A stretch of 64,000 nt of DNA from Gammaproteobacteria bacterium (GCA_020051155.1 JAGVJK010000002.1:2411-66410), one strand, 5' to 3'; counted from the first letter of the stretch, positions 28,029-34,692 are shown. Made by a program: numbers and translations. The notes: generated by a model not told the origin, from the letters alone.

Positions 28029-28207
28029 CCCCCAATTTTGCGAGGAGCACAGGATTAAGCGGTCGACGGGAACCGCAACCGGGCTGACCATGCATCTTGC
28101 TCGATCTCCGCTGCTATTCCACCTACAAGAGATGATCATTGACTCAACCTCGCTGGCCCGTTAAAGTGACGCTCCCCCACCAAAATAGAACCAAAGGGTA
28201 CAACAAA

Positions 28208-29041
28208 ATGAACTATCGACACGCCTACCACGCCGGCGGTTTTTCAGACGTAATGAAGCATGGCATTGAATGCCTAATCCTTGATTATCTTACAAAAAAA
28301 GAAAAAGGATTCGTCTATCTCGATACCCATGCCGGTATTGGTCATTATGACCTACATAGCGATGAAAGCAGCCGCGGTCAGGAATATCGGCAGGGGATTC
28401 ACAAAATTATGGCCTTACCCAGCGTACCCGAGGAAGTTCAGATTTATCGTGACATTGTCGGCCACTATTACGATGCCCCACAAAAACTGTTTTACCCGGG
28501 CTCCCCCTTAATAGCAAAGCATTTCATGCGAGAGCAAGACAAATTGATCCTCAATGAATTTCACCCAGAGGATAGCCAAATTTTAAAACAAGTCTTTCGC
28601 CGCGAGCCCCAAGTGCATTGCCATCAACGAGATGCCTATGAGTTTCTACCCGCAATGCTTCCCCCCGAACCACGACGTGGTCTTATTTTAATCGATCCCC
28701 CCTATGAAGAACGACAAGAATTATCAAGCGCCATGAAATTGCTGAAACAAGGCATCGATAAATTTGCACAAGGCGTGTACTTGCTATGGTATCCCATCAA
28801 AGACTATCGAAATGAAACCGCAGTTAAAATTCTCAAACAAGCACGCTTGCCCGCAGACAGCCTGCATTTAGAATATTTTCACCAAAAACCAGAAACAGAC
28901 AGCAATAAATTAATCGGTTCCGGTGTTGTAGTGGTGAATCCACCCTGGCCATTGAAAGAGCAAGCGGCAGTTTTTCTTGAACAAATGGTTAAAACTTTAT
29001 CGAAAGCGGGCGAGGGAGACCAACGAATTACAATTCTCTGA
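28208..29041 (+). CDS. rlmJ: 23S rRNA (adenine2030-N6)-methyltransferase
   Basis: From the ATG at 28208 the protein reads MNYRHAYHAGGFSDVMKH...YLDTHAGIGHY...YPGSPLIA...LILIDPPYE...VVVVNPPW. This is collinear with E. coli RlmJ. The ORF track's upstream TTG extension is unlikely to be translated. Confidence 0.85.
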   Translation: MNYRHAYHAGGFSDVMKHGIECLILDYLTKKEKGFVYLDTHAGIGHYDLHSDESSRGQEYRQGIHKIMALPSVPEEVQIYRDIVGHYYDAPQKLFYPGSPLIAKHFMREQDKLILNEFHPEDSQILKQVFRREPQVHCHQRDAYEFLPAMLPPEPRRGLILIDPPYEERQELSSAMKLLKQGIDKFAQGVYLLWYPIKDYRNETAVKILKQARLPADSLHLEYFHQKPETDSNKLIGSGVVVVNPPWPLKEQAAVFLEQMVKTLSKAGEGDQRITIL

Positions 29042-29113: not shown

Positions 29114-29914
29114 ATGAAGTGTTTGACCTATTGTGTTGCAGAGCAAATTAATCTTGCGAATGTAGAGCAACAATGCAAATTGCAACCAGGATTATTGTAT
29201 CAGCGACATTGGGGAGGATTAGAACTTTTCGATGCAGCTAAAACCCGTTATTGTTATATTTTTAAAAATGGCACTGTTATTGCGTGGGGCTACCACCGGC
29301 ATAATATTAAAGGGATTTTTGATTTGCTGATAGCCGCTGGCGTCAAGATGTTAGATACCTATATTCACGATGAATTTTCTTATCATCTAGCAGAAGAAAC
29401 AAATGTTTGGCCTCACCCGTATTTTAATCTCGATTGTATTTCCCTCGAAAGTGATGATCCAGAAATTAAATTGGCTGTTTCCTATGGTTTATCCATGTCA
29501 GTGAAATTGTATTACTATGAAACTATCATCGAAAAATTAATTAGTCATTATTATCCGCTTATTTCTAAATTAGCTAAGTTCGGACGGTTTAAGTTTTCCC
29601 GAGAAAGAATCAATAAAATTTTAGGGGATATTCTAGCGATTCACAGTGAAATTAATTTAGCGAGTAATTTTTTATATCAACCAAAGTTCTTTTGGCAACA
29701 TCCAGGGTTAGAACGTTATTATTGGTTATTTGAGAAATATCTCGACATTTCAGCGCGTGCAGAAAATATTAATCAACAACTAGATACATTAAATGAAGTA
29801 TTTCTCATGTTTAATGGGTATCTTGAAAACAAGCATACGCATCGATTAGAAATTATTATTATTGTGTTAATCGCAGTTGAAATTCTTTTTAGTGTTTTAA
29901 ATCTTCATCTTTAA
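29114..29914 (+). CDS. DUF155 / RMD1-family protein with a C-terminal TM helix
   Basis: YCYIFKNGTVIAWGY and the C-terminal RLEIIIIVLIAVEILFSVLNL match the RMND1/DUF155 pattern. It is the first gene of a five-gene overlapped cluster. Confidence 0.6.
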   Translation: MKCLTYCVAEQINLANVEQQCKLQPGLLYQRHWGGLELFDAAKTRYCYIFKNGTVIAWGYHRHNIKGIFDLLIAAGVKMLDTYIHDEFSYHLAEETNVWPHPYFNLDCISLESDDPEIKLAVSYGLSMSVKLYYYETIIEKLISHYYPLISKLAKFGRFKFSRERINKILGDILAIHSEINLASNFLYQPKFFWQHPGLERYYWLFEKYLDISARAENINQQLDTLNEVFLMFNGYLENKHTHRLEIIIIVLIAVEILFSVLNLHL

Positions 29915-29926
29915 GCAAGGGATCAT

Positions 29927-30640
29927 ATGATTAATTTAAAAATAAAAAATCAACCGGATGATGAAACCTGTGGACCTACCAGCTTGCACAGTGTTTATCG
30001 ATATTATGGTGATAAGATCTCTCTTAAAACAGTATTAAACACTGTGAAGCGAGTGACAGGTGGTGGCACTATCGCATCTCATTTAGGATGTCATGCGTTA
30101 GAGCGAGGTTATCAAGCTAAATTGTTTACCTATAACTTGAAGATATTTGACCCTAGCTGGTTTCCAGATGGAAAAAGTTCGAGAGAATATCTATATGAGA
30201 AATTAATGGAGCAAAAAAAACATAAATCATCAAAAAAAACCAATGAAGTCAGTGACGGTTACGCTAACTTTCTGCAATTGGGCGGCGATATTTTTTTTAA
30301 AGATCTTTCAACTGCTTTGCTTAGAAAGTTTTTTACTAAATCACAACCGATCATTACCGGATTAAGTGCCACTTATTTATATAATTCAATACGAGAAACC
30401 TTCACGGAGGAGGGAGTTTCTGTTCCAGATGATATTCTAGGAGAACCTTGCGGGCATTTTGTAGTGTTGTGTGGTTATGATGAAGATCAACGACATATGA
30501 TTGTTGCGGATCCTCATCAAAAGAATCCATTATCAAAAGATAATTATTATACGGTAGATCGTAATCGACTTATTAATTCAATCATGTTGGGTGTGTTGAC
30601 CTATGATGCAACACTTCTTATTATTTCACCAAGAGAGTAA
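29927..30640 (+). CDS. C39-like papain-fold cysteine peptidase
   Basis: N-terminal QPDDETCGPTSL (candidate catalytic Cys), followed by CGHFVVLCGYDEDQRHMIVADP (His/Asp), arranged as in C39-type peptidase domains. Confidence 0.55.
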   Translation: MINLKIKNQPDDETCGPTSLHSVYRYYGDKISLKTVLNTVKRVTGGGTIASHLGCHALERGYQAKLFTYNLKIFDPSWFPDGKSSREYLYEKLMEQKKHKSSKKTNEVSDGYANFLQLGGDIFFKDLSTALLRKFFTKSQPIITGLSATYLYNSIRETFTEEGVSVPDDILGEPCGHFVVLCGYDEDQRHMIVADPHQKNPLSKDNYYTVDRNRLINSIMLGVLTYDATLLIISPRE

Positions 30641-30643
30641 TTT

Positions 30644-32110
30644 ATGCAAACTATTTTAGTCACGGATGAGCCAGAGTTTTGGAGTTTTCTTTCTGAAAAG
30701 ACCGAGATTGTCGACGCAGTTGATTATTTGTCGAATATTGATTATACCAATGGATATCATTATCGAGTGATTAATCTTTGTAATTCTCACGAATATCAAA
30801 GTGTAGGGTATTATGTTTCTTTATTAGCAGAAGCGCGAGGCCATAAAATTATCCCAAGCGTTATTGCTATTCAAGATGTAATGAATTCATCCTTAGCAAA
30901 GACATTGTCTGATGCCTTAGAAGCTGAAATTGATCATGAGCTCCATGGACTTAAATCAGAGGAATTTGTGTTAAGTGTTTATTTTGGTAAGAACGTTGCA
31001 GCAAAATATGATGTTCTTGCAAAAAAATTGCACCAGCTATTACCACTGCCAATGTTTAGAGTGTACTTTAAGCACGCTCGACACTGGCATATCAAGCAAA
31101 TTAAACCCGTTAATATTGAGAGCGTATTACCGCAGCATTTAGAGTTTATGAAGGAAGCCGCTTGCCGGTATTTTGAAAAGAAACGTTTTCATAATCATCG
31201 CCCCAAAGCACGTTATTATGATTTAGCAATTCTTCATAACCCGAATGAATCGACACCACCTTCAGATAAAGATGCACTTAAAAAATTCATGGGTGCTGGC
31301 CACGAGCTTGGGATCGATGTTAGTTTAATTGAAAAAAGTGATTTTAAAAATCTAGCAGAATATGATGGCTTATTTATTCGTGAAACTACATCTATTGATC
31401 ATCACACCTATTCATTTGCCAGAAAAGCATATGCAGAGCATATGATGGTGATCGATGATCCTGTATCTATTTTAAAATGTTGCAATAAGGTTTATTTAGC
31501 AGAGCTTACTAGACGCCATAATATACCATCACCAAAAACATGGATTCTCAATCAACAAAACTTAGATAAAATGAATAAAGTATTAAGTTATCCCTGTGTG
31601 TTAAAAAAACCTGATAGTGCTTTTTCACAAGGTGTCATAAAGGTGGAAGATTATTCAGCTTTAACAAAAGCGATTAAACCTTTTTTTAATTCTTCAGATT
31701 TAATTATTGCACAAGAATTTTTACCAACAGACTATGACTGGCGAATCGGTATTTTTGATAACAAACCAATTTTTGCGTGTAAATATTATATGGCAGCAGG
31801 TCATTGGCAAATTTATAATTGGAAAGAAGATGAAAAGCATGAGGATTTTGTCGGTGATTTTGATACCGTCCATGTAGAAGACGTGCCTAAGGAAGTGATT
31901 GCCACCGCATTAAAAGCAACAAAACTGATTGGTGATGGCTTATATGGTGTTGATTTGAAGCAAGTAGGCCAGCAATGTTATGTGATTGAAGTGAACGACA
32001 ATCCTAATCTTGATTCCGGGGTAGAAGATCAAGCGTTGGGTGACGAAATGTATGCTTCCATTATGAAGGTTTTTTTACAGCGCATGCAAAGGTTACACGG
32101 TCATGAGTAA
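30644..32110 (+). CDS. RimK-like ATP-grasp ligase with a ~200-aa N-terminal extension (RLAN-like)
   Basis: The C-terminal half (VLKKPDSAFSQGV, IAQEFLPTDYDWRIGIF, GVDLKQ...VIEVNDNPN) is RimK-type ATP-grasp. The N-terminal domain (YRVINLCNSHEYQSVGYYVSLLAEARGHKIIPS) is what I recall as the RimK-like ATP-grasp N-terminal domain. Confidence 0.75.
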   Translation: MQTILVTDEPEFWSFLSEKTEIVDAVDYLSNIDYTNGYHYRVINLCNSHEYQSVGYYVSLLAEARGHKIIPSVIAIQDVMNSSLAKTLSDALEAEIDHELHGLKSEEFVLSVYFGKNVAAKYDVLAKKLHQLLPLPMFRVYFKHARHWHIKQIKPVNIESVLPQHLEFMKEAACRYFEKKRFHNHRPKARYYDLAILHNPNESTPPSDKDALKKFMGAGHELGIDVSLIEKSDFKNLAEYDGLFIRETTSIDHHTYSFARKAYAEHMMVIDDPVSILKCCNKVYLAELTRRHNIPSPKTWILNQQNLDKMNKVLSYPCVLKKPDSAFSQGVIKVEDYSALTKAIKPFFNSSDLIIAQEFLPTDYDWRIGIFDNKPIFACKYYMAAGHWQIYNWKEDEKHEDFVGDFDTVHVEDVPKEVIATALKATKLIGDGLYGVDLKQVGQQCYVIEVNDNPNLDSGVEDQALGDEMYASIMKVFLQRMQRLHGHE

Positions 32111-33332
32111 AACAGATTATCCACTTTTCTCAGTGTTTGGGATTGAATTAGAATACATGATCGTTGATAAAAATGATTTATCGGTCAAGCCGATTGCTGA
32201 TCAGCTCATATTAGAACTATCAGGAACTGTGGAAAATGAAATAGAGCTGGGAGCGATTGCCCTTAGCAATGAATTAGCCATGCATGTGGTAGAGTTAAAA
32301 ACCAATGGTCCTGCAAAATCCTTAGAGAATTTATCCGAAAACTTTCATGAAGTCATTTTAACGGTGAATGAAGCATTAAAAAAATTTGACGCAGTGCTCA
32401 TGCCAACAGGCGCACATCCATGGTTAGATCCAAAAAAAGGCATTAAATTATGGCATCATGGCGATCGTACTATTTATGAAACCTTTCATCGAATATTCAA
32501 TTGCAGTGGACATGGCTGGGGAAATTTGCAAAGTACCCATTTAAACTTACCCTTTGCCAATGAAGAAGAATTTGTTGCCTTGCATAGTGCCATTCGATTA
32601 TTGCTCGCGTTTATTCCCGCATTAACGGCAAGCACGCCAATTTTAGAAGGACAATATGAAGGAGCCTTAGATAGCCGATTACTTTTTTATGGCACCAACC
32701 AAGCGAGTATTCCCCATATTTCAGGACATATTATTCCAGAGCCAGTGCAATCTATTGCCGAATATCATGCAGTGATTTTACAACCAATGTATCGTGATAT
32801 TGCGCAATATGATCCAGAAAATATTATGCAAAATGAGTGGCTAAACTCGCGTGGCGCAGTGGCTAAATTTAAGTATGGCGCTATAGAAATTAGGATTTTA
32901 GATTTACAAGAGTCACCGCAGATGGATTTAGCCTGCATTGCACTCATTGTCGAAGTGTTAAAAGATTTAATGAAATGTGTTGATTTGAAATCTTCTTTAA
33001 CTTATCCAACGACTGGATTAAAAGTAGTTTATGATGAAGTGATTTACAAAGGATTTGATGCTCAAGTCACAGACCAAGAATTACTAACATTATTGAAATG
33101 TGATTTGCAAGCGCCCTGTACAGTAAAAGAAGTTTGGCAAGCATTGATTACTAGAGTTTCAGATCGTTTGAAGCAGCCAGAGAAGGAGATGCTCCATCTT
33201 ATTCTAGAACATGGAAATTTAGCGCAACGTATTTCACAAGCGGTGGGTACAACAGTGCGACAAGAAGTTTTATTCAACGTTTATCAGTCGTTGATGGACT
33301 GTTTAAAAAGAAATGTGATGTTTTTGCCATGA
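32103..33332 (+). CDS. GCS2-family carboxylate-amine ligase (glutamate-cysteine-ligase-like)
   Basis: FGIELEYMIVD, HLNLPF and IEIRILD are characteristic of YbdK/GCS2-type ligases. There is an 8-nt overlap with the ATP-grasp gene. Confidence 0.7.
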   Translation: MSKTDYPLFSVFGIELEYMIVDKNDLSVKPIADQLILELSGTVENEIELGAIALSNELAMHVVELKTNGPAKSLENLSENFHEVILTVNEALKKFDAVLMPTGAHPWLDPKKGIKLWHHGDRTIYETFHRIFNCSGHGWGNLQSTHLNLPFANEEEFVALHSAIRLLLAFIPALTASTPILEGQYEGALDSRLLFYGTNQASIPHISGHIIPEPVQSIAEYHAVILQPMYRDIAQYDPENIMQNEWLNSRGAVAKFKYGAIEIRILDLQESPQMDLACIALIVEVLKDLMKCVDLKSSLTYPTTGLKVVYDEVIYKGFDAQVTDQELLTLLKCDLQAPCTVKEVWQALITRVSDRLKQPEKEMLHLILEHGNLAQRISQAVGTTVRQEVLFNVYQSLMDCLKRNVMFLP

Positions 33333-34039
33333 CGGATTGTTATCTGATTACCTGTGAACATGCTAGTAGTGAAGTTCCTCAGGAGTATACTTATTTATTT
33401 GCAGGGCAGGAGAGTGCACTGAAGACCCATCGTGGATACGATATCGGTTCAAAACAAGTATACGAGCGATTCGCCGATGAATTGCCTTGTTGGTCACAAG
33501 CAGGAAATTATACTCGCTTGTTGGTAGATTTAAACCGCACGGTGAATCACCCTCAGTTATTTTCAAGTTTTACTCGTAGCTTATCTGCGGCAGACAAAAA
33601 AATGATTTTAGAAAAATTTTATTTTCCTTACGTGTCAAATTTAGAGAAAGCCATTACCCAGCGTCTTGAAACACAGGAAAGAGTCTTTCATCTTTCATTG
33701 CATAGCTTTACGCCTACTATAAATGAAAAAGAGAGAAACAATGATATTGGTTTTTTGTACGATCCTCAGCATGCAGCAGAAAAGAAACTCTGTCTGTTAT
33801 GGCAAAGCGTGCTTAAGGAGCAAATGCCCTCTTTTCACGTGCGAATGAATTATCCCTACAAAGGCACTTCCAATGGCTTAACGTCACATTTTCGCAAAAA
33901 ATATCCAAAGTATCACGGCATCGAAGTGGAAATCAATCAGCGGTTATTTTCTGCTAAGCATTCAGTGAGTGACTTCATTGCGCAGTTTTTAAAAAGCTTC
34001 ACTACCGTATCTGATGTAATGAAAAACAGTCAGGCATAA
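33329..34039 (+). CDS. N-formylglutamate amidohydrolase (FGase/HutG-like) family hydrolase
   Basis: LITCEHASSEVP, LLVDLNR and HLSLHSFTP are FGase-family motifs. There is an ATGA overlap with the GCS2 gene. Confidence 0.7.
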   Translation: MTDCYLITCEHASSEVPQEYTYLFAGQESALKTHRGYDIGSKQVYERFADELPCWSQAGNYTRLLVDLNRTVNHPQLFSSFTRSLSAADKKMILEKFYFPYVSNLEKAITQRLETQERVFHLSLHSFTPTINEKERNNDIGFLYDPQHAAEKKLCLLWQSVLKEQMPSFHVRMNYPYKGTSNGLTSHFRKKYPKYHGIEVEINQRLFSAKHSVSDFIAQFLKSFTTVSDVMKNSQA

Positions 34040-34096
34040 AAAAGGAGGGATCAGTCCCTCCTTTTTTACGGAACCTTTGTCGAACAAAGGTTCCGT
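34038..34096. terminator. Back-to-back hairpins between convergent genes (bidirectional intrinsic terminator)
   Basis: AAAAAAGGAGGGAtcagTCCCTCCTTTTTT (34038-34067) is flanked by A and T runs. It is followed by ACGGAACCTTTGtcgaaCAAAGGTTCCGT (34068-34096). Confidence 0.65.
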
Positions 34097-34112
34097 ATCT
34101 AGCCAATATAAA

Positions 34113-34394
34113 TTAGTTAGATGTTCCACTTTGATCGGTGGATGAAGTAGAAGATGCATCACTAGCAGGAGCTGCATCGCTAGCGGGAGCTGCATCACTA
34201 GCTGGAGCTGGTGTTGCAGGTGTTGTAGCAGCAGGAGCTGCACTTTGATCGCTCGTGCTGGTTGTACTTTGATCAGTGCTGCTGCTAGTTGCTGCAGATT
34301 GATCCGCATCTGTAGAGGAGCCTTTATTTTGGCACGCTACTAAACTGGTAGCAAACAATACGCTCGCTAAAATGACTAAGCCTTTTTTTAACAT
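34113..34394 (-). CDS. Small low-complexity lipoprotein (93 aa)
   Basis: The ATG at 34392-34394 is preceded by GGAGAA. MLKKGLVILASVLFATSLVAC is a signal peptide with an L-V-A-C lipobox. The mature part is Ser/Thr/Ala/Pro/Asp-rich. Confidence 0.7.
   Translation of the reverse strand: MLKKGLVILASVLFATSLVACQNKGSSTDADQSAATSSSTDQSTTSTSDQSAAPAATTPATPAPASDAAPASDAAPASDASSTSSTDQSGTSN
34156..34209. repeat. 3 x 18-bp tandem repeat inside the lipoprotein gene
   Basis: GCATCACTAGCAGGAGCT / GCATCGCTAGCGGGAGCT / GCATCACTAGCTGGAGCT, encoding (AAPASD)x3 on the minus strand. Confidence 0.9.
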
Positions 34395-34692
34395 TTGGTT
34401 CTCCATAAAATTGCTCTTTACAAACAAGCCCCTAATGGATATAACATCCATAAAAGCACATAAAGATTTTACTGTACATTCTAAGATCCGGCAACCTGTT
34501 TTAGAAGTAAAAAAAATATTTGGTCAAGTTACTGGCATCTTTGCGCAACCTATGCTTAATTTTAGAGTGTGAATTGGAATATCATAAAACGTTAAGGGAT
34601 GCATCCAGAGTAACTTCCCATTTTGGACATGCTCCTAGACTGGAAAAGTAAATTAGAGTACAGAACATACACGAGTACAGAAGGGGTAAAAC

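Follow-up and report, generated by a model that had tools for sequence, protein, structure and literature searches.

Enzymes of rimK_fam as well as MptN, LysX and CofF all couple an acidic amino acid to a carboxylate. Ngg, which combines a GNAT with an ATP-grasp ligase, makes the N-acetyl-Gln-Gln of the NAGGN osmolyte (the NCBIfam product name for TIGR03103 is 'N-acetylglutaminylglutamine synthetase'), and mammalian NAT8L together with RIMKLA/B makes N-acetyl-Asp-Glu (NAAG). ATP-grasp enzymes also mature graspetides. On the hydrolytic side, FGase-family enzymes act on small N-acyl-Glu substrates, and the gamma-glutamyl amidohydrolase EgtC belongs to the GATase_4 family. Eukaryotic RMND1, a DUF155 protein, is required for mitochondrial translation. 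The RLAN family was reportedly defined in the comparative-genomic survey of amidoligases by Iyer, Abhiman, Burroughs and Aravind (Mol Biosyst 2009). For the gene cassette described here, the published literature on the system and its component families yielded no product and no experimental characterization, in agreement with the original statement that, as far as was known, neither product nor target had been shown for this architecture. The cassette is an ordinary, typical copy of a widespread, functionally uncharacterized pathway, not something new.

In the window (the whole 64-kb stretch of DNA that was analyzed), ORF calling yields five ORFs on the + strand, which span 29114-34039. The features are:

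29114-29914, + strand: DUF155 protein, 266 aa, with one C-terminal TM helix (Pfam PF02582)
29927-30640, + strand: C39-like peptidase, 237 aa, stand-alone, papain-fold (Pfam Peptidase_C39_2)
30644-32110, + strand: RLAN-ATP-grasp protein, 488 aa (Pfam RLAN and RimK)
30644-31177, + strand: RLAN domain, a module of the 488-aa protein (aa 1-178)
aa 180-190 of the 488-aa protein, + strand: disordered linker between RLAN and ATP-grasp
aa 193-488 of the 488-aa protein, + strand: RimK-clade ATP-grasp ligase module
32103-33332, + strand: GCS2-family protein, 409 aa (Pfam GCS2)
33329-34039, + strand: FGase-fold protein, 236 aa (Pfam FGase)
34039-34066 and 34067-34097, no strand: two tandem hairpins (folding energy compared with shuffles)

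The junctions (+12, +3, -8 and -4 nt, in this order) are as originally claimed. The 12-nt spacer between the DUF155 and C39-like genes (gcaagggatcat) contains a Shine-Dalgarno-like AAGGGA. The GCS2 ORF overlaps the ATP-grasp gene by 8 nt, and the FGase ORF overlaps that of GCS2 by 4 nt. The first hairpin begins at the final base of the FGase stop codon, and the hairpins separate the operon from a convergent small ORF. They have a minimum free energy of -40.9 kcal/mol (z = -8.4; none of 200 shuffles was equally stable). Because the first hairpin is flanked by an A-run and a T-run on opposite sides, it can work both ways, and the pair is probably the bidirectional intrinsic terminator that had been proposed. 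A simple terminator scan did not pick up the hairpins, the probable cause being that the T-run pairs into the stem.

All five proteins exceed the Pfam gathering scores, and the domain identities assigned earlier (DUF155, Peptidase_C39_2, RLAN plus RimK, GCS2 and FGase) stand; every motif that had been quoted for them is present in the translated ORFs. None of the five reaches a cutoff in an NCBIfam search, and PADLOC defence models gave no match at E <= 0.01.

The 488-aa protein carries RLAN (PF14401; 4.6e-45, aa 27-171, 153.4 bits vs a cutoff of 25) directly N-terminal to a RimK-type ATP-grasp module (PF08443; 2.1e-08, aa 281-458, 34.4 bits vs 21). In its AF2 model (pLDDT 87), the two modules are joined by the disordered linker. 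The C-terminal ~300 aa match RimK, LysX/ArgX and Ddl in Foldseek (E about 1e-15). Among 20 diverse homologs, D437 is invariant, and conservation reaches 90% or more at K282, K321, R367, E449 and N451; from general knowledge of the fold, we take these residues to be ATP/Mg2+ ligands. In NCBIfam, the ATP-grasp module comes closest to rimK_fam, MptN, LysX and CofF, all sub-cutoff (59.5 bits vs 143.4 for rimK_fam, TIGR00768), and the S6 ligase equivalog (NF007764) scores 19.7 bits vs 331. The RLAN profile has no sequence relatives in the PDB, and its motif YQSxGYYVSLLAEARGH is very strongly conserved across phyla.

Its predicted partner, the 409-aa protein, is assigned by profile searches as a divergent GCS2-family carboxylate-amine ligase outside the named YbdK and glutamate-cysteine ligase equivalogs. 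It matches Pfam GCS2 (PF04107; 5.3e-23, 82.2 bits vs 21), while its top NCBIfam match, NF010039, reaches 49.6 bits vs a cutoff of 371, and TIGR02050 reaches 46.3 bits vs 176.4. The best PDB matches of the profile, to YbdK (1r8g) and plant GCL, are at just 1e-4. Residues E15, E17, E57, H61, E64, R250, E262 and R264 are invariant in 32 sequences.

The 236-aa protein is a predicted FGase-fold amidohydrolase of an Atu2144-like subfamily (PF05013; 7.4e-25, 88.8 bits vs 28.9). Its nearest solved relative is Atu2144 (2odf, 1.6e-34), a protein without an assigned function; a true FGase (2q7s) is matched only at 2e-5, and the HutG equivalog (TIGR02017) scores 17.4 bits vs 278.75. The invariant residues are E10, H11, H34, D38, R63, R70, H121, H125, R136, R189, E199 and E201. 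The four invariant arginines, together with the His, Glu and Asp residues as candidate metal ligands, would suit an acidic substrate.

The C39-like protein has Pfam matches to Peptidase_C39_2 (3.8e-11), C39 (8.8e-07) and Guanylate_cyc_2 (1.5e-06), and its papain-like catalytic set (Q9, C15, H177, D195) is invariant in 25 homologs. The AF2 model (pLDDT 83) includes a helical insert of ~60-90 aa. Its best Foldseek matches are the double-glycine peptidase domains of PCAT1, ComA and LahT (about 1e-4), followed by PeiR (4e-4) and phytochelatin synthase (5e-3). Neither a fused or adjacent ABC exporter nor a Gly-Gly precursor gene was found near its gene.

The DUF155 protein (PF02582; 3.2e-36, 125.5 bits vs 27) has the layout of the DUF155/RMD1 family (RMND1, Sif2), the domain being followed by a C-terminal TM helix (LEIIIIVLIAVEILFSVLNL). 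E246 and E256, in or beside this helix, are invariant. The protein has no sequence relative in the PDB.

Gene neighborhoods were surveyed at 80 related loci from many phyla, the best 80 of at least 600 matches; being the top scorers, they form a sample biased to the query's own subfamily. The conserved order is C39-like, RLAN-ATP-grasp, GCS2, FGase. The C39-like gene, the first of this core, lies upstream of the ATP-grasp gene in 61 of 78 loci, and GCS2 is directly downstream of it in 63/76. FGase is encoded at 41 of 69 loci (40 plus one divergent copy, in L074); at L018, its slot is occupied by a GATase_4 (class-II glutamine-amidotransferase-like) amidohydrolase. The order occurs in Legionellales, Bacteroidota, Planctomycetota, Spirochaetota, Nitrospirota, Verrucomicrobiota, Fibrobacterota, Acidobacteriota and others, and its recurrence in dozens of genomes is well beyond chance expectation. 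In two cases (P0245 and P0257), RLAN-ATP-grasp and GCS2 are fused into single polypeptides. A second architecture has GNAT fused to RLAN-ATP-grasp, or encoded by an adjacent gene, exactly at those loci that are devoid of GCS2, C39 and FGase. RLAN-ATP-grasp is genomically coupled to another amidoligase, either GCS2 or GNAT. Catalytic residues are invariant across all four enzyme families, except that the ATP-grasp module has one invariant residue and others that are near-invariant.

Four genes, rather than the proposed five, are conserved as a unit; the claim that two ligases and two hydrolases form a unit is borne out by their co-conservation across phyla. In the survey, DUF155 lies next to the cassette at no more than 2 of 73 loci; a few contigs of Legionellales add to these. 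Its adjacency is limited to the window, L084, L085, L087, L032 and L041, in two orientations and at least three lineages. It is unlinked from the cassette in L086 and L088-L090; Legionella oakridgensis, L. micdadei and further contigs of Legionellales show no linkage either. DUF155 is a recurrent but occasional, lineage-variable accessory and not part of the core. RlmJ adjoins the cassette in two lineages. In many phyla, the cassette is surrounded by housekeeping genes. No recurring transporter or precursor gene was found among ~50 upstream and ~50 downstream neighbors, no conserved riboswitch flanks the cassette, and no candidate target protein is linked to it in the 80 loci. A hydrophobic N-terminal signal-like segment is absent from all four core enzymes, as judged from their translated sequences.

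We tentatively propose, with a probability of about 0.4, that the core is a cytoplasmic four-gene cassette for the synthesis and turnover of a small acidic gamma-Glu/alpha-Glu peptide or an N-acyl-glutamate-type metabolite. The GCS2 ligase would activate a carboxylate, which, judging from other members of the family, would be the gamma-carboxyl of Glu, and couple an amine to it. The RLAN-ATP-grasp ligase, as a member of the RimK/MptN/CofF/LysX clade, would then attach L-Glu or a similar acidic residue to a free carboxylate, so that the product would be glutathione-like: an N-terminal gamma-glutamyl cap, X, and a C-terminal Glu. The FGase-fold hydrolase may cut the N-acyl-Glu amide bond, reversing the ATP-grasp step, and the C39-like Cys/His peptidase may cleave or transfer the other bond, which would give one ligase/hydrolase pair per bond. 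With GNAT instead of GCS2, an acetyl cap would take the place of the gamma-glutamyl cap. DUF155 would be an optional membrane partner. In this scheme, we infer the substrates, the linkage types, the pairing of hydrolases with ligases and the order of the steps; the domain identities, intact catalytic residues, co-conservation, fusions and lack of a co-encoded precursor or transporter are observed.

In favor of a small acidic peptide, we count the gene order conserved across phyla, the RLAN-ATP-grasp/GCS2 fusions, and the replacement of GCS2 by GNAT, with Ngg and NAT8L plus RIMKLA/B as small-molecule precedents. The best NCBIfam relatives of the ATP-grasp module, the acidic-substrate-type residues of the FGase-like protein and the GATase_4 in L018 point in the same direction, as do the invariant catalytic residues, the lack of a flanking precursor, transporter or riboswitch, and the lack of signal-like segments. 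On the other hand, these data fit a free peptide and a protein-bound tail alike; RimK itself modifies a protein, and RLAN could be a protein-recognition module. The usual cleavage site of C39 peptidases lies after Gly-Gly in a protein or peptide and is not a gamma-glutamyl bond, and the Foldseek match of the C39-like protein to phytochelatin synthase is weaker than that to C39 domains. As FGase is absent at ~40% of the loci, the scheme of two ligase/hydrolase pairs, taken strictly, does not apply everywhere. Two earlier ideas gained no support: possible export, since there is no conserved transporter, DUF155 has a single C-terminal TM helix and the four enzymes have no signal-like segment; and a role for Cys, to which nothing found points.

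The main rival is protein tagging, which we regard as possible but rather doubtful. Here, the RLAN-ATP-grasp ligase, alone or with GCS2, would glutamylate a housekeeping protein whose gene lies elsewhere, at its C-terminus or on a side chain, in the manner of RimK, the poly-alpha-L-glutamate ligase of ribosomal protein S6. RLAN would recognize the target, the C39-like and FGase-like enzymes would trim or erase the tail, much as the protease RimB acts on RimK products, and DUF155 would tether the system to the membrane. RimK provides the nearest structures and profiles, and a Pseudomonas RimABK operon has been described in which the RimK ligase is paired with a tail-trimming protease (PMC11957791). 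A universal target would explain why no substrate is co-encoded, the conservation of the RLAN motif is expected of an interface with a conserved partner, and C39 enzymes are true polypeptide endopeptidases. However, the RimK scores are far sub-cutoff (59.5 vs 143.4 and 19.7 vs 331 bits), and a linked candidate target was found in 0/80 loci. The GCS2-GNAT swap and the GNAT/ATP-grasp precedents suit a metabolite better, and so does the FGase family with its small N-acyl-Glu compounds.

It is tempting to speculate on a translation-linked variant, in which the ligases would add acidic tails to a protein of the ribosome or one associated with it, the hydrolases would erase them, and DUF155 would anchor the system to the membrane. 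The hints (DUF155 adjacency, the RlmJ neighbor and the ribosome-anchoring role reported for RMND1) are weak, and we consider this variant quite improbable; if true, it would be the first functional clue to the need for RMND1 in mitochondrial translation.

Maturation and export of a ribosomal peptide (graspetide- or bacteriocin-like) is very improbable. Removal of a double-glycine leader would fall to the C39-like enzyme, macrocyclization to the ATP-grasp enzyme and export to DUF155. The C39 fold does resemble the leader peptidases of PCAT transporters, but neither a precursor ORF nor an ABC transporter is conserved beside the cassette. The peptidase is stand-alone and has no N-terminal signal-like segment, the ATP-grasp module groups with the RimK/LysX/Ddl clade, the surroundings are housekeeping genes in many phyla, and nearly all loci are devoid of DUF155.

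A known pathway (glutathione by GshA and GshB, histidine utilization with HutG, or the NAGGN cassette Ngg/AsnO/M42 peptidase) or a set of chance neighbors has next to no likelihood. What speaks for it is a set of weak matches to glutathione synthetase, glutamate-cysteine ligase and HutG profiles. Against it, these matches are far short of the curated cutoffs (GshB 37 bits vs 408, GCL models <=39 vs >=249, HutG 17 vs 279), TIGR03103 has no match to the window protein, no hut genes lie near the window cassette (its neighbors are ligases), defence models gave no PADLOC match, and chance is excluded because the order is conserved across phyla and genes are fused.

Compared with known systems, the FGase-fold protein shares its fold with HutG but has a sub-cutoff score and no hut-operon context. 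The C39-like peptidase has the papain-like fold and the Gln/Cys/His/Asp catalytic set of PCAT/ComA C39 domains; it differs by being stand-alone, by its ~60-90-aa helical insert, and by having neither a transporter or precursor gene nor a signal-like segment. With glutathione biosynthesis, the cassette shares the logic of a GCL-superfamily enzyme and an ATP-grasp ligase, whose genes here overlap by 8 nt and are sometimes fused. However, its ligases are below every GshA/GshB cutoff, a Cys or Gly substrate is not indicated, and two dedicated hydrolases belong to the cassette. RimK is similar in the fold of the ATP-grasp module (Foldseek E about 1e-15, TM to target about 0.75), and Pseudomonas rimABK likewise joins a ligase with a peptidase in one operon. 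The cassette protein, at 488 aa, has an extra ~180-aa RLAN domain and falls well short of the RimK cutoffs; instead of RimA/RimB, it is accompanied by GCS2, a C39-like peptidase and an FGase-fold hydrolase, and it has no known link to S6. The sister GNAT-RLAN-ATP-grasp architecture resembles Ngg and NAT8L plus RIMKLA/B, an N-capping enzyme being joined to a RimK-like ligase, but the GNAT-RLAN fusions score 33 bits vs 569 against TIGR03103, in the GNAT region only, and the window cassette has GCS2, not GNAT. The RLAN-ATP-grasp neighborhoods predicted in the survey by Iyer et al. are matched in the domain itself (PF14401, 153 bits) and in the association with COOH-NH2 ligase and GNAT, which is observed here.

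The conserved unit around this operon is a cassette of four genes, which code, in this order, for a C39-like protein, an RLAN-ATP-grasp protein, a GCS2 protein and an FGase-like protein. In the window, a DUF155 gene precedes the cassette, so that the operon (29114-34039) has five ORFs:

28139-29041, + strand: rlmJ, upstream of the operon (Pfam RsmJ, 2.2e-65)
29114-29914, + strand: ORF 1, DUF155 (Pfam DUF155, 3.2e-36)
29927-30640, + strand: ORF 2, C39-like (Pfam Peptidase_C39_2, 3.8e-11; C39 and Guanylate_cyc_2 are weaker)
30644-32110, + strand: ORF 3, RLAN-ATP-grasp (Pfam RLAN, 4.6e-45, and RimK ATP-grasp, 2.1e-08)
32103-33332, + strand: ORF 4, GCS2 (Pfam GCS2, 5.3e-23)
33329-34039, + strand: ORF 5, FGase-like (Pfam FGase, 7.4e-25)
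34039-34066 and 34067-34097: tandem hairpins (the first one begins within the stop codon of ORF 5, at its last base)

Translation of the window yields the five ORFs exactly where the original prediction places them. Its five domain assignments are borne out by a Pfam run, each exceeding the gathering score. The junctions between the ORFs are +12, +3, -8 and -4 nt, and a Shine-Dalgarno-like AAGGGA is located within the 12-nt spacer 5' of the second gene. At the operon end, where a strong bidirectional terminator was predicted, two tandem hairpins (34039-34097) separate the operon from a convergent small ORF (MFE -40.9 kcal/mol, z = -8.4 versus shuffles). They probably form a terminator, for which "bidirectional" is a fair description because an A-run and a T-run flank the first hairpin. 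No terminator-like site was found between rlmJ and the first ORF, and thus transcriptional read-through from rlmJ into the operon may occur.

The surroundings in the window are of a housekeeping type (an AcrB-type pump, dapD, rlmJ, a YkuD L,D-transpeptidase, a Na+/H+ exchanger, an M20 peptidase and fatty-acid oxidation genes). The convergent small ORF (34113-34451, - strand), which has the hairpin terminator in common with the operon, has a lipoprotein-type signal, MLKKGLVILASVLFATSLVAC, from an internal Met, followed by a Ser/Thr/Ala/Asp-rich low-complexity tail. A small minus-strand ORF is found at the equivalent position in the related locus L084. Two paralogous large proteins (mutual BLASTP 4e-34) are encoded on the + strand between dapD and rlmJ, which are directly adjoining in L084. 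The first (21243-23621, 792 aa) is without a Pfam match, while the second (23778-28028, 1416 aa) has ankyrin repeats and an internally duplicated module. The pair looks like a lineage-specific insertion of ~6.9 kb with eukaryote-like, effector-like genes.

The closest homologues of the operon are from Legionellales. The top ATP-grasp match other than the protein itself has 57% identity, and names such as Legionella or Tatlockia are numerous among the matches. L084 shares the order dapD, rlmJ, DUF155, C39, RLAN-ATP-grasp, GCS2, FGase, small ORF, YkuD and exchanger with the window, and its C39-like protein shows 71% identity. Beyond this lineage, the ATP-grasp protein has matches in at least 8000 clusters at 90% identity; at 50% identity, about 400 clusters match at E <= 1e-30. 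Gene order was surveyed with an alignment of 20 diverse RLAN-ATP-grasp proteins as query and one genome per species as target. The survey covered the 80 top-ranking loci among at least 600 matches, a set in which the query's own subfamily is over-represented because of its high scores. They come from Legionellales, other Gammaproteobacteria, Betaproteobacteria, Bacteroidota, Balneolaceae, Planctomycetota, Verrucomicrobiota, Spirochaetota, Nitrospirota, Fibrobacterota, Acidobacteriota, Desulfobacterota-like MAGs and others. The cassette occurs in free-living as well as intracellular bacteria of many phyla. Only 11 plasmid records have a match, and these are mostly chromids or chromosome-like fragments.

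All-against-all clustering of neighbour ORFs suffered from shadow ORFs on the antisense strand of high-GC genomes, and tblastn counts with the window proteins and same-strand Pfam tallies were used. With loci having enough flanking sequence as denominators, tblastn finds the C39-like gene directly upstream of RLAN-ATP-grasp in 61/78 loci, GCS2 directly downstream in 63/76, and FGase after GCS2 in 40/69. Strand and order are uniform wherever these three genes were counted. Pfam adds one divergent FGase (L074), and in another locus, L018, a GATase_4 amidohydrolase occupies the FGase slot; apart from these two, no recurrent substitute was found in the FGase-less loci. When the nearest same-strand genes on both sides were tallied by Pfam, no family occurred in more than 3 of ~50 loci; therefore, transporters, regulators and short precursor genes are not part of the unit. 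Neither a riboswitch nor a leader RNA was detected in the window (at E <= 1) or beside the cassette in 8 loci. Two neighbourhoods are noted in passing. A glutaredoxin and a 1-Cys peroxiredoxin gene lie ~1 kb past the C39 end of the cassette on a gammaproteobacterial contig (L085, 11906-12801), a hint of a redox or thiol connection at a single locus, seen nowhere else. In a Thioalkalivibrio MAG (L069, 4229-5032, - strand), as also in the lineage of the window, rlmJ is less than 3 kb from the cassette, which may be coincidence or a faint ribosome link.

The DUF155 gene, counted as a full member in the original prediction, adjoins the cassette in only 2/73 surveyed loci (L032 and L041, Pfam-confirmed; outside Legionellales, these are one Spirochaetota MAG and one unclassified MAG). 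Two further loci have it at 2.5-6 kb. The link is probably real, if loose, because 4/81 loci have DUF155 within 8 kb, versus ~0.4 expected by chance (assuming about one copy per genome, ~3000 genes per genome and ~15 genes per such interval). The family is common in Legionellales, and its position relative to the cassette is variable. The window and L084 have it upstream in the orientation of the cassette; L085 and L087 have it in convergent orientation, abutting the FGase end, with outer flanks that differ between loci. L. micdadei and three other contigs encode it at an unlinked position, and L. oakridgensis and three MAGs of Legionella or Tatlockia have no copy within 8 kb of the cassette. 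DUF155 is thus treated as an optional accessory, and its recurrent linkage is the only surprise of the window copy. The protein has a single, C-terminal TM helix (29849-29914). Two residues in or near this helix, E246 and E256, are invariant in 15 homologues, including those from Spirochaetota. Such charges in a solitary TM helix are suggestive of an oligomer that conducts or binds ions. The DUF155 profile has no meaningful match in PDB. In two other loci, of which L035 is confirmed, CorA-type channels take the upstream position. Nothing marks DUF155 as an exporter and no transporter recurs beside the cassette, so that the proposed export has no evidence in its favour; the same holds for Cys in the product. 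What stands of the earlier interpretation is a two-ligase, two-hydrolase unit that is co-conserved across phyla.

The C39-like protein has invariant Gln9, Cys15, His177 and Asp195, and its translation is devoid of a hydrophobic N-terminal signal-like segment. The top structural matches of its AF2 model (pLDDT 83) are the double-glycine C39 peptidase domains of PCAT1, ComA and LahT (E ~1e-4), followed by the isopeptidase PeiR (4e-4) and phytochelatin synthase (5e-3). In the model of the RLAN-ATP-grasp protein (pLDDT 87), an alpha/beta RLAN module (aa 1-178) is connected by a disordered linker to a RimK/LysX/Ddl-like module; the latter dominates the Foldseek matches of the whole protein (E ~1e-15). 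D437 is invariant and E449, N451, K282, K321 and R367 are near-invariant among 20 diverse proteins; in this fold, they are presumably the Mg2+ and ATP ligands. The most conserved stretch of the protein is the RLAN motif YQSxGYYVSLLAEARGH, and no PDB entry is related in sequence to the RLAN profile. The GCS2 protein represents a divergent subfamily, its profile matching YbdK and plant glutamate-cysteine ligase only at ~1e-4. The FGase-like protein, with several invariant His, Glu, Asp and Arg residues, groups with Atu2144 (1.6e-34), while authentic N-formylglutamate amidohydrolase is distant (2e-5).

Gene fusions also connect these enzymes. RLAN, ATP-grasp and GCS2 form a single chain in two 50%-identity cluster representatives (P0245, 975 aa; P0257, 984 aa). 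A GNAT is fused N-terminally to RLAN-ATP-grasp in five scanned representatives and C-terminally in another (P0206); from length and match offset, the N-terminal fusion is expected in ~13 of the best 150. In seven surveyed loci, RLAN-ATP-grasp lacks C39, GCS2 and FGase partners, and all seven are GNAT-associated (five by full-length fusion, two by a separate GNAT gene overlapping the ATP-grasp start). GCS2 and GNAT thus look like alternative partners of one ligase. Assignment of the fusions as NAGGN synthetase Ngg was rejected (33 bits versus a cutoff of 569). In a verrucomicrobial GNAT-type locus (L065, 4123-5376, + strand), a PLP-dependent Orn/DAP/Arg decarboxylase gene is directly 3' of RLAN-ATP-grasp, which hints at small-molecule amino-acid chemistry in this variant. 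An S9 peptidase replacing C39 in flavobacterial loci was also dismissed, the ORFs being secreted Endonuclease I proteins.

The RLAN family reportedly originates from a 2009 amidoligase survey (Iyer et al.), which is said to have predicted that neighbourhoods of ATP-grasp and COOH-NH2 ligases make unidentified peptides or tags. The window operon is a standard member of this computationally predicted system. No functional study or product of the cassette and its parts was found in the literature. Partial versions are probably present in Francisella and Pseudomonas aeruginosa. Deletion of the Francisella 'rimK' FTT0178 (490 aa) did not cause attenuation in mice; from its length and annotation, this gene is a probable orthologue of RLAN-ATP-grasp. 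A P. aeruginosa record typed as plasmid (NZ_CP133752.1, 5908-7497) has a stand-alone RLAN-ATP-grasp gene with 43% identity to that of the window and no C39, GCS2 or FGase partner. It follows ggt, a Glu/Asp ABC transporter, pagP and an SDR gene in a chromosome-like stretch and, judging from PAO1 gene order, is presumably PA1345. PA1345 is mentioned in expression tables, and a December 2025 paper still terms the P. aeruginosa homologue a hypothetical ATP-binding protein. The cassette is very widespread. Its elucidation would yield a new small peptide, glutathione-like or NAAG-like and equipped with dedicated turnover enzymes, or else a new bacterial system of protein glutamylation and deglutamylation, and the compact overlapping operon of the window is a handy unit for heterologous expression and a good experimental handle.

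In the best-supported reading, tentatively put at about 40%, the cassette would make a small acidic peptide in the cytoplasm and also encode the enzymes for its turnover. A gamma-glutamyl-type amide would come from GCS2 and the addition of Glu from the RimK-clade ATP-grasp ligase; of the hydrolases, the FGase-fold enzyme would hydrolyse an N-acyl-Glu bond, and the C39-like Cys peptidase would cleave or transfer the other bond. This is suggested by the replacement of GCS2 by a GNAT, by the acidic substrates that are family precedent for ATP-grasp and FGase enzymes, by the amidohydrolase in the FGase slot of L018 and by the failure to find a co-encoded protein substrate. By the precedent of Ngg and of NAT8L with RIMKLA/B, the GNAT variant would give N-acetyl dipeptides.

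The main rival, in which a housekeeping protein is glutamylated in a RimK-like manner and the hydrolases serve as erasers, is somewhat less probable, and sequence analysis does not discriminate between the two readings. It is favoured by the RimK affinity of the ligase, by the additional RLAN domain and its conservation, by C39 enzymes being endopeptidases and by RimK/RimB as a precedent. A canonical glutathione, histidine-utilisation or NAGGN pathway is unlikely (none of the five proteins reaches an NCBIfam cutoff), as are a RiPP or bacteriocin locus, a defence system, because no PADLOC defence model matches any of the five, and a chance neighbourhood. The small acidic peptide pathway is favoured also by a likeness to a known system, since the cassette and glutathione synthesis have a two-ligase logic in common.
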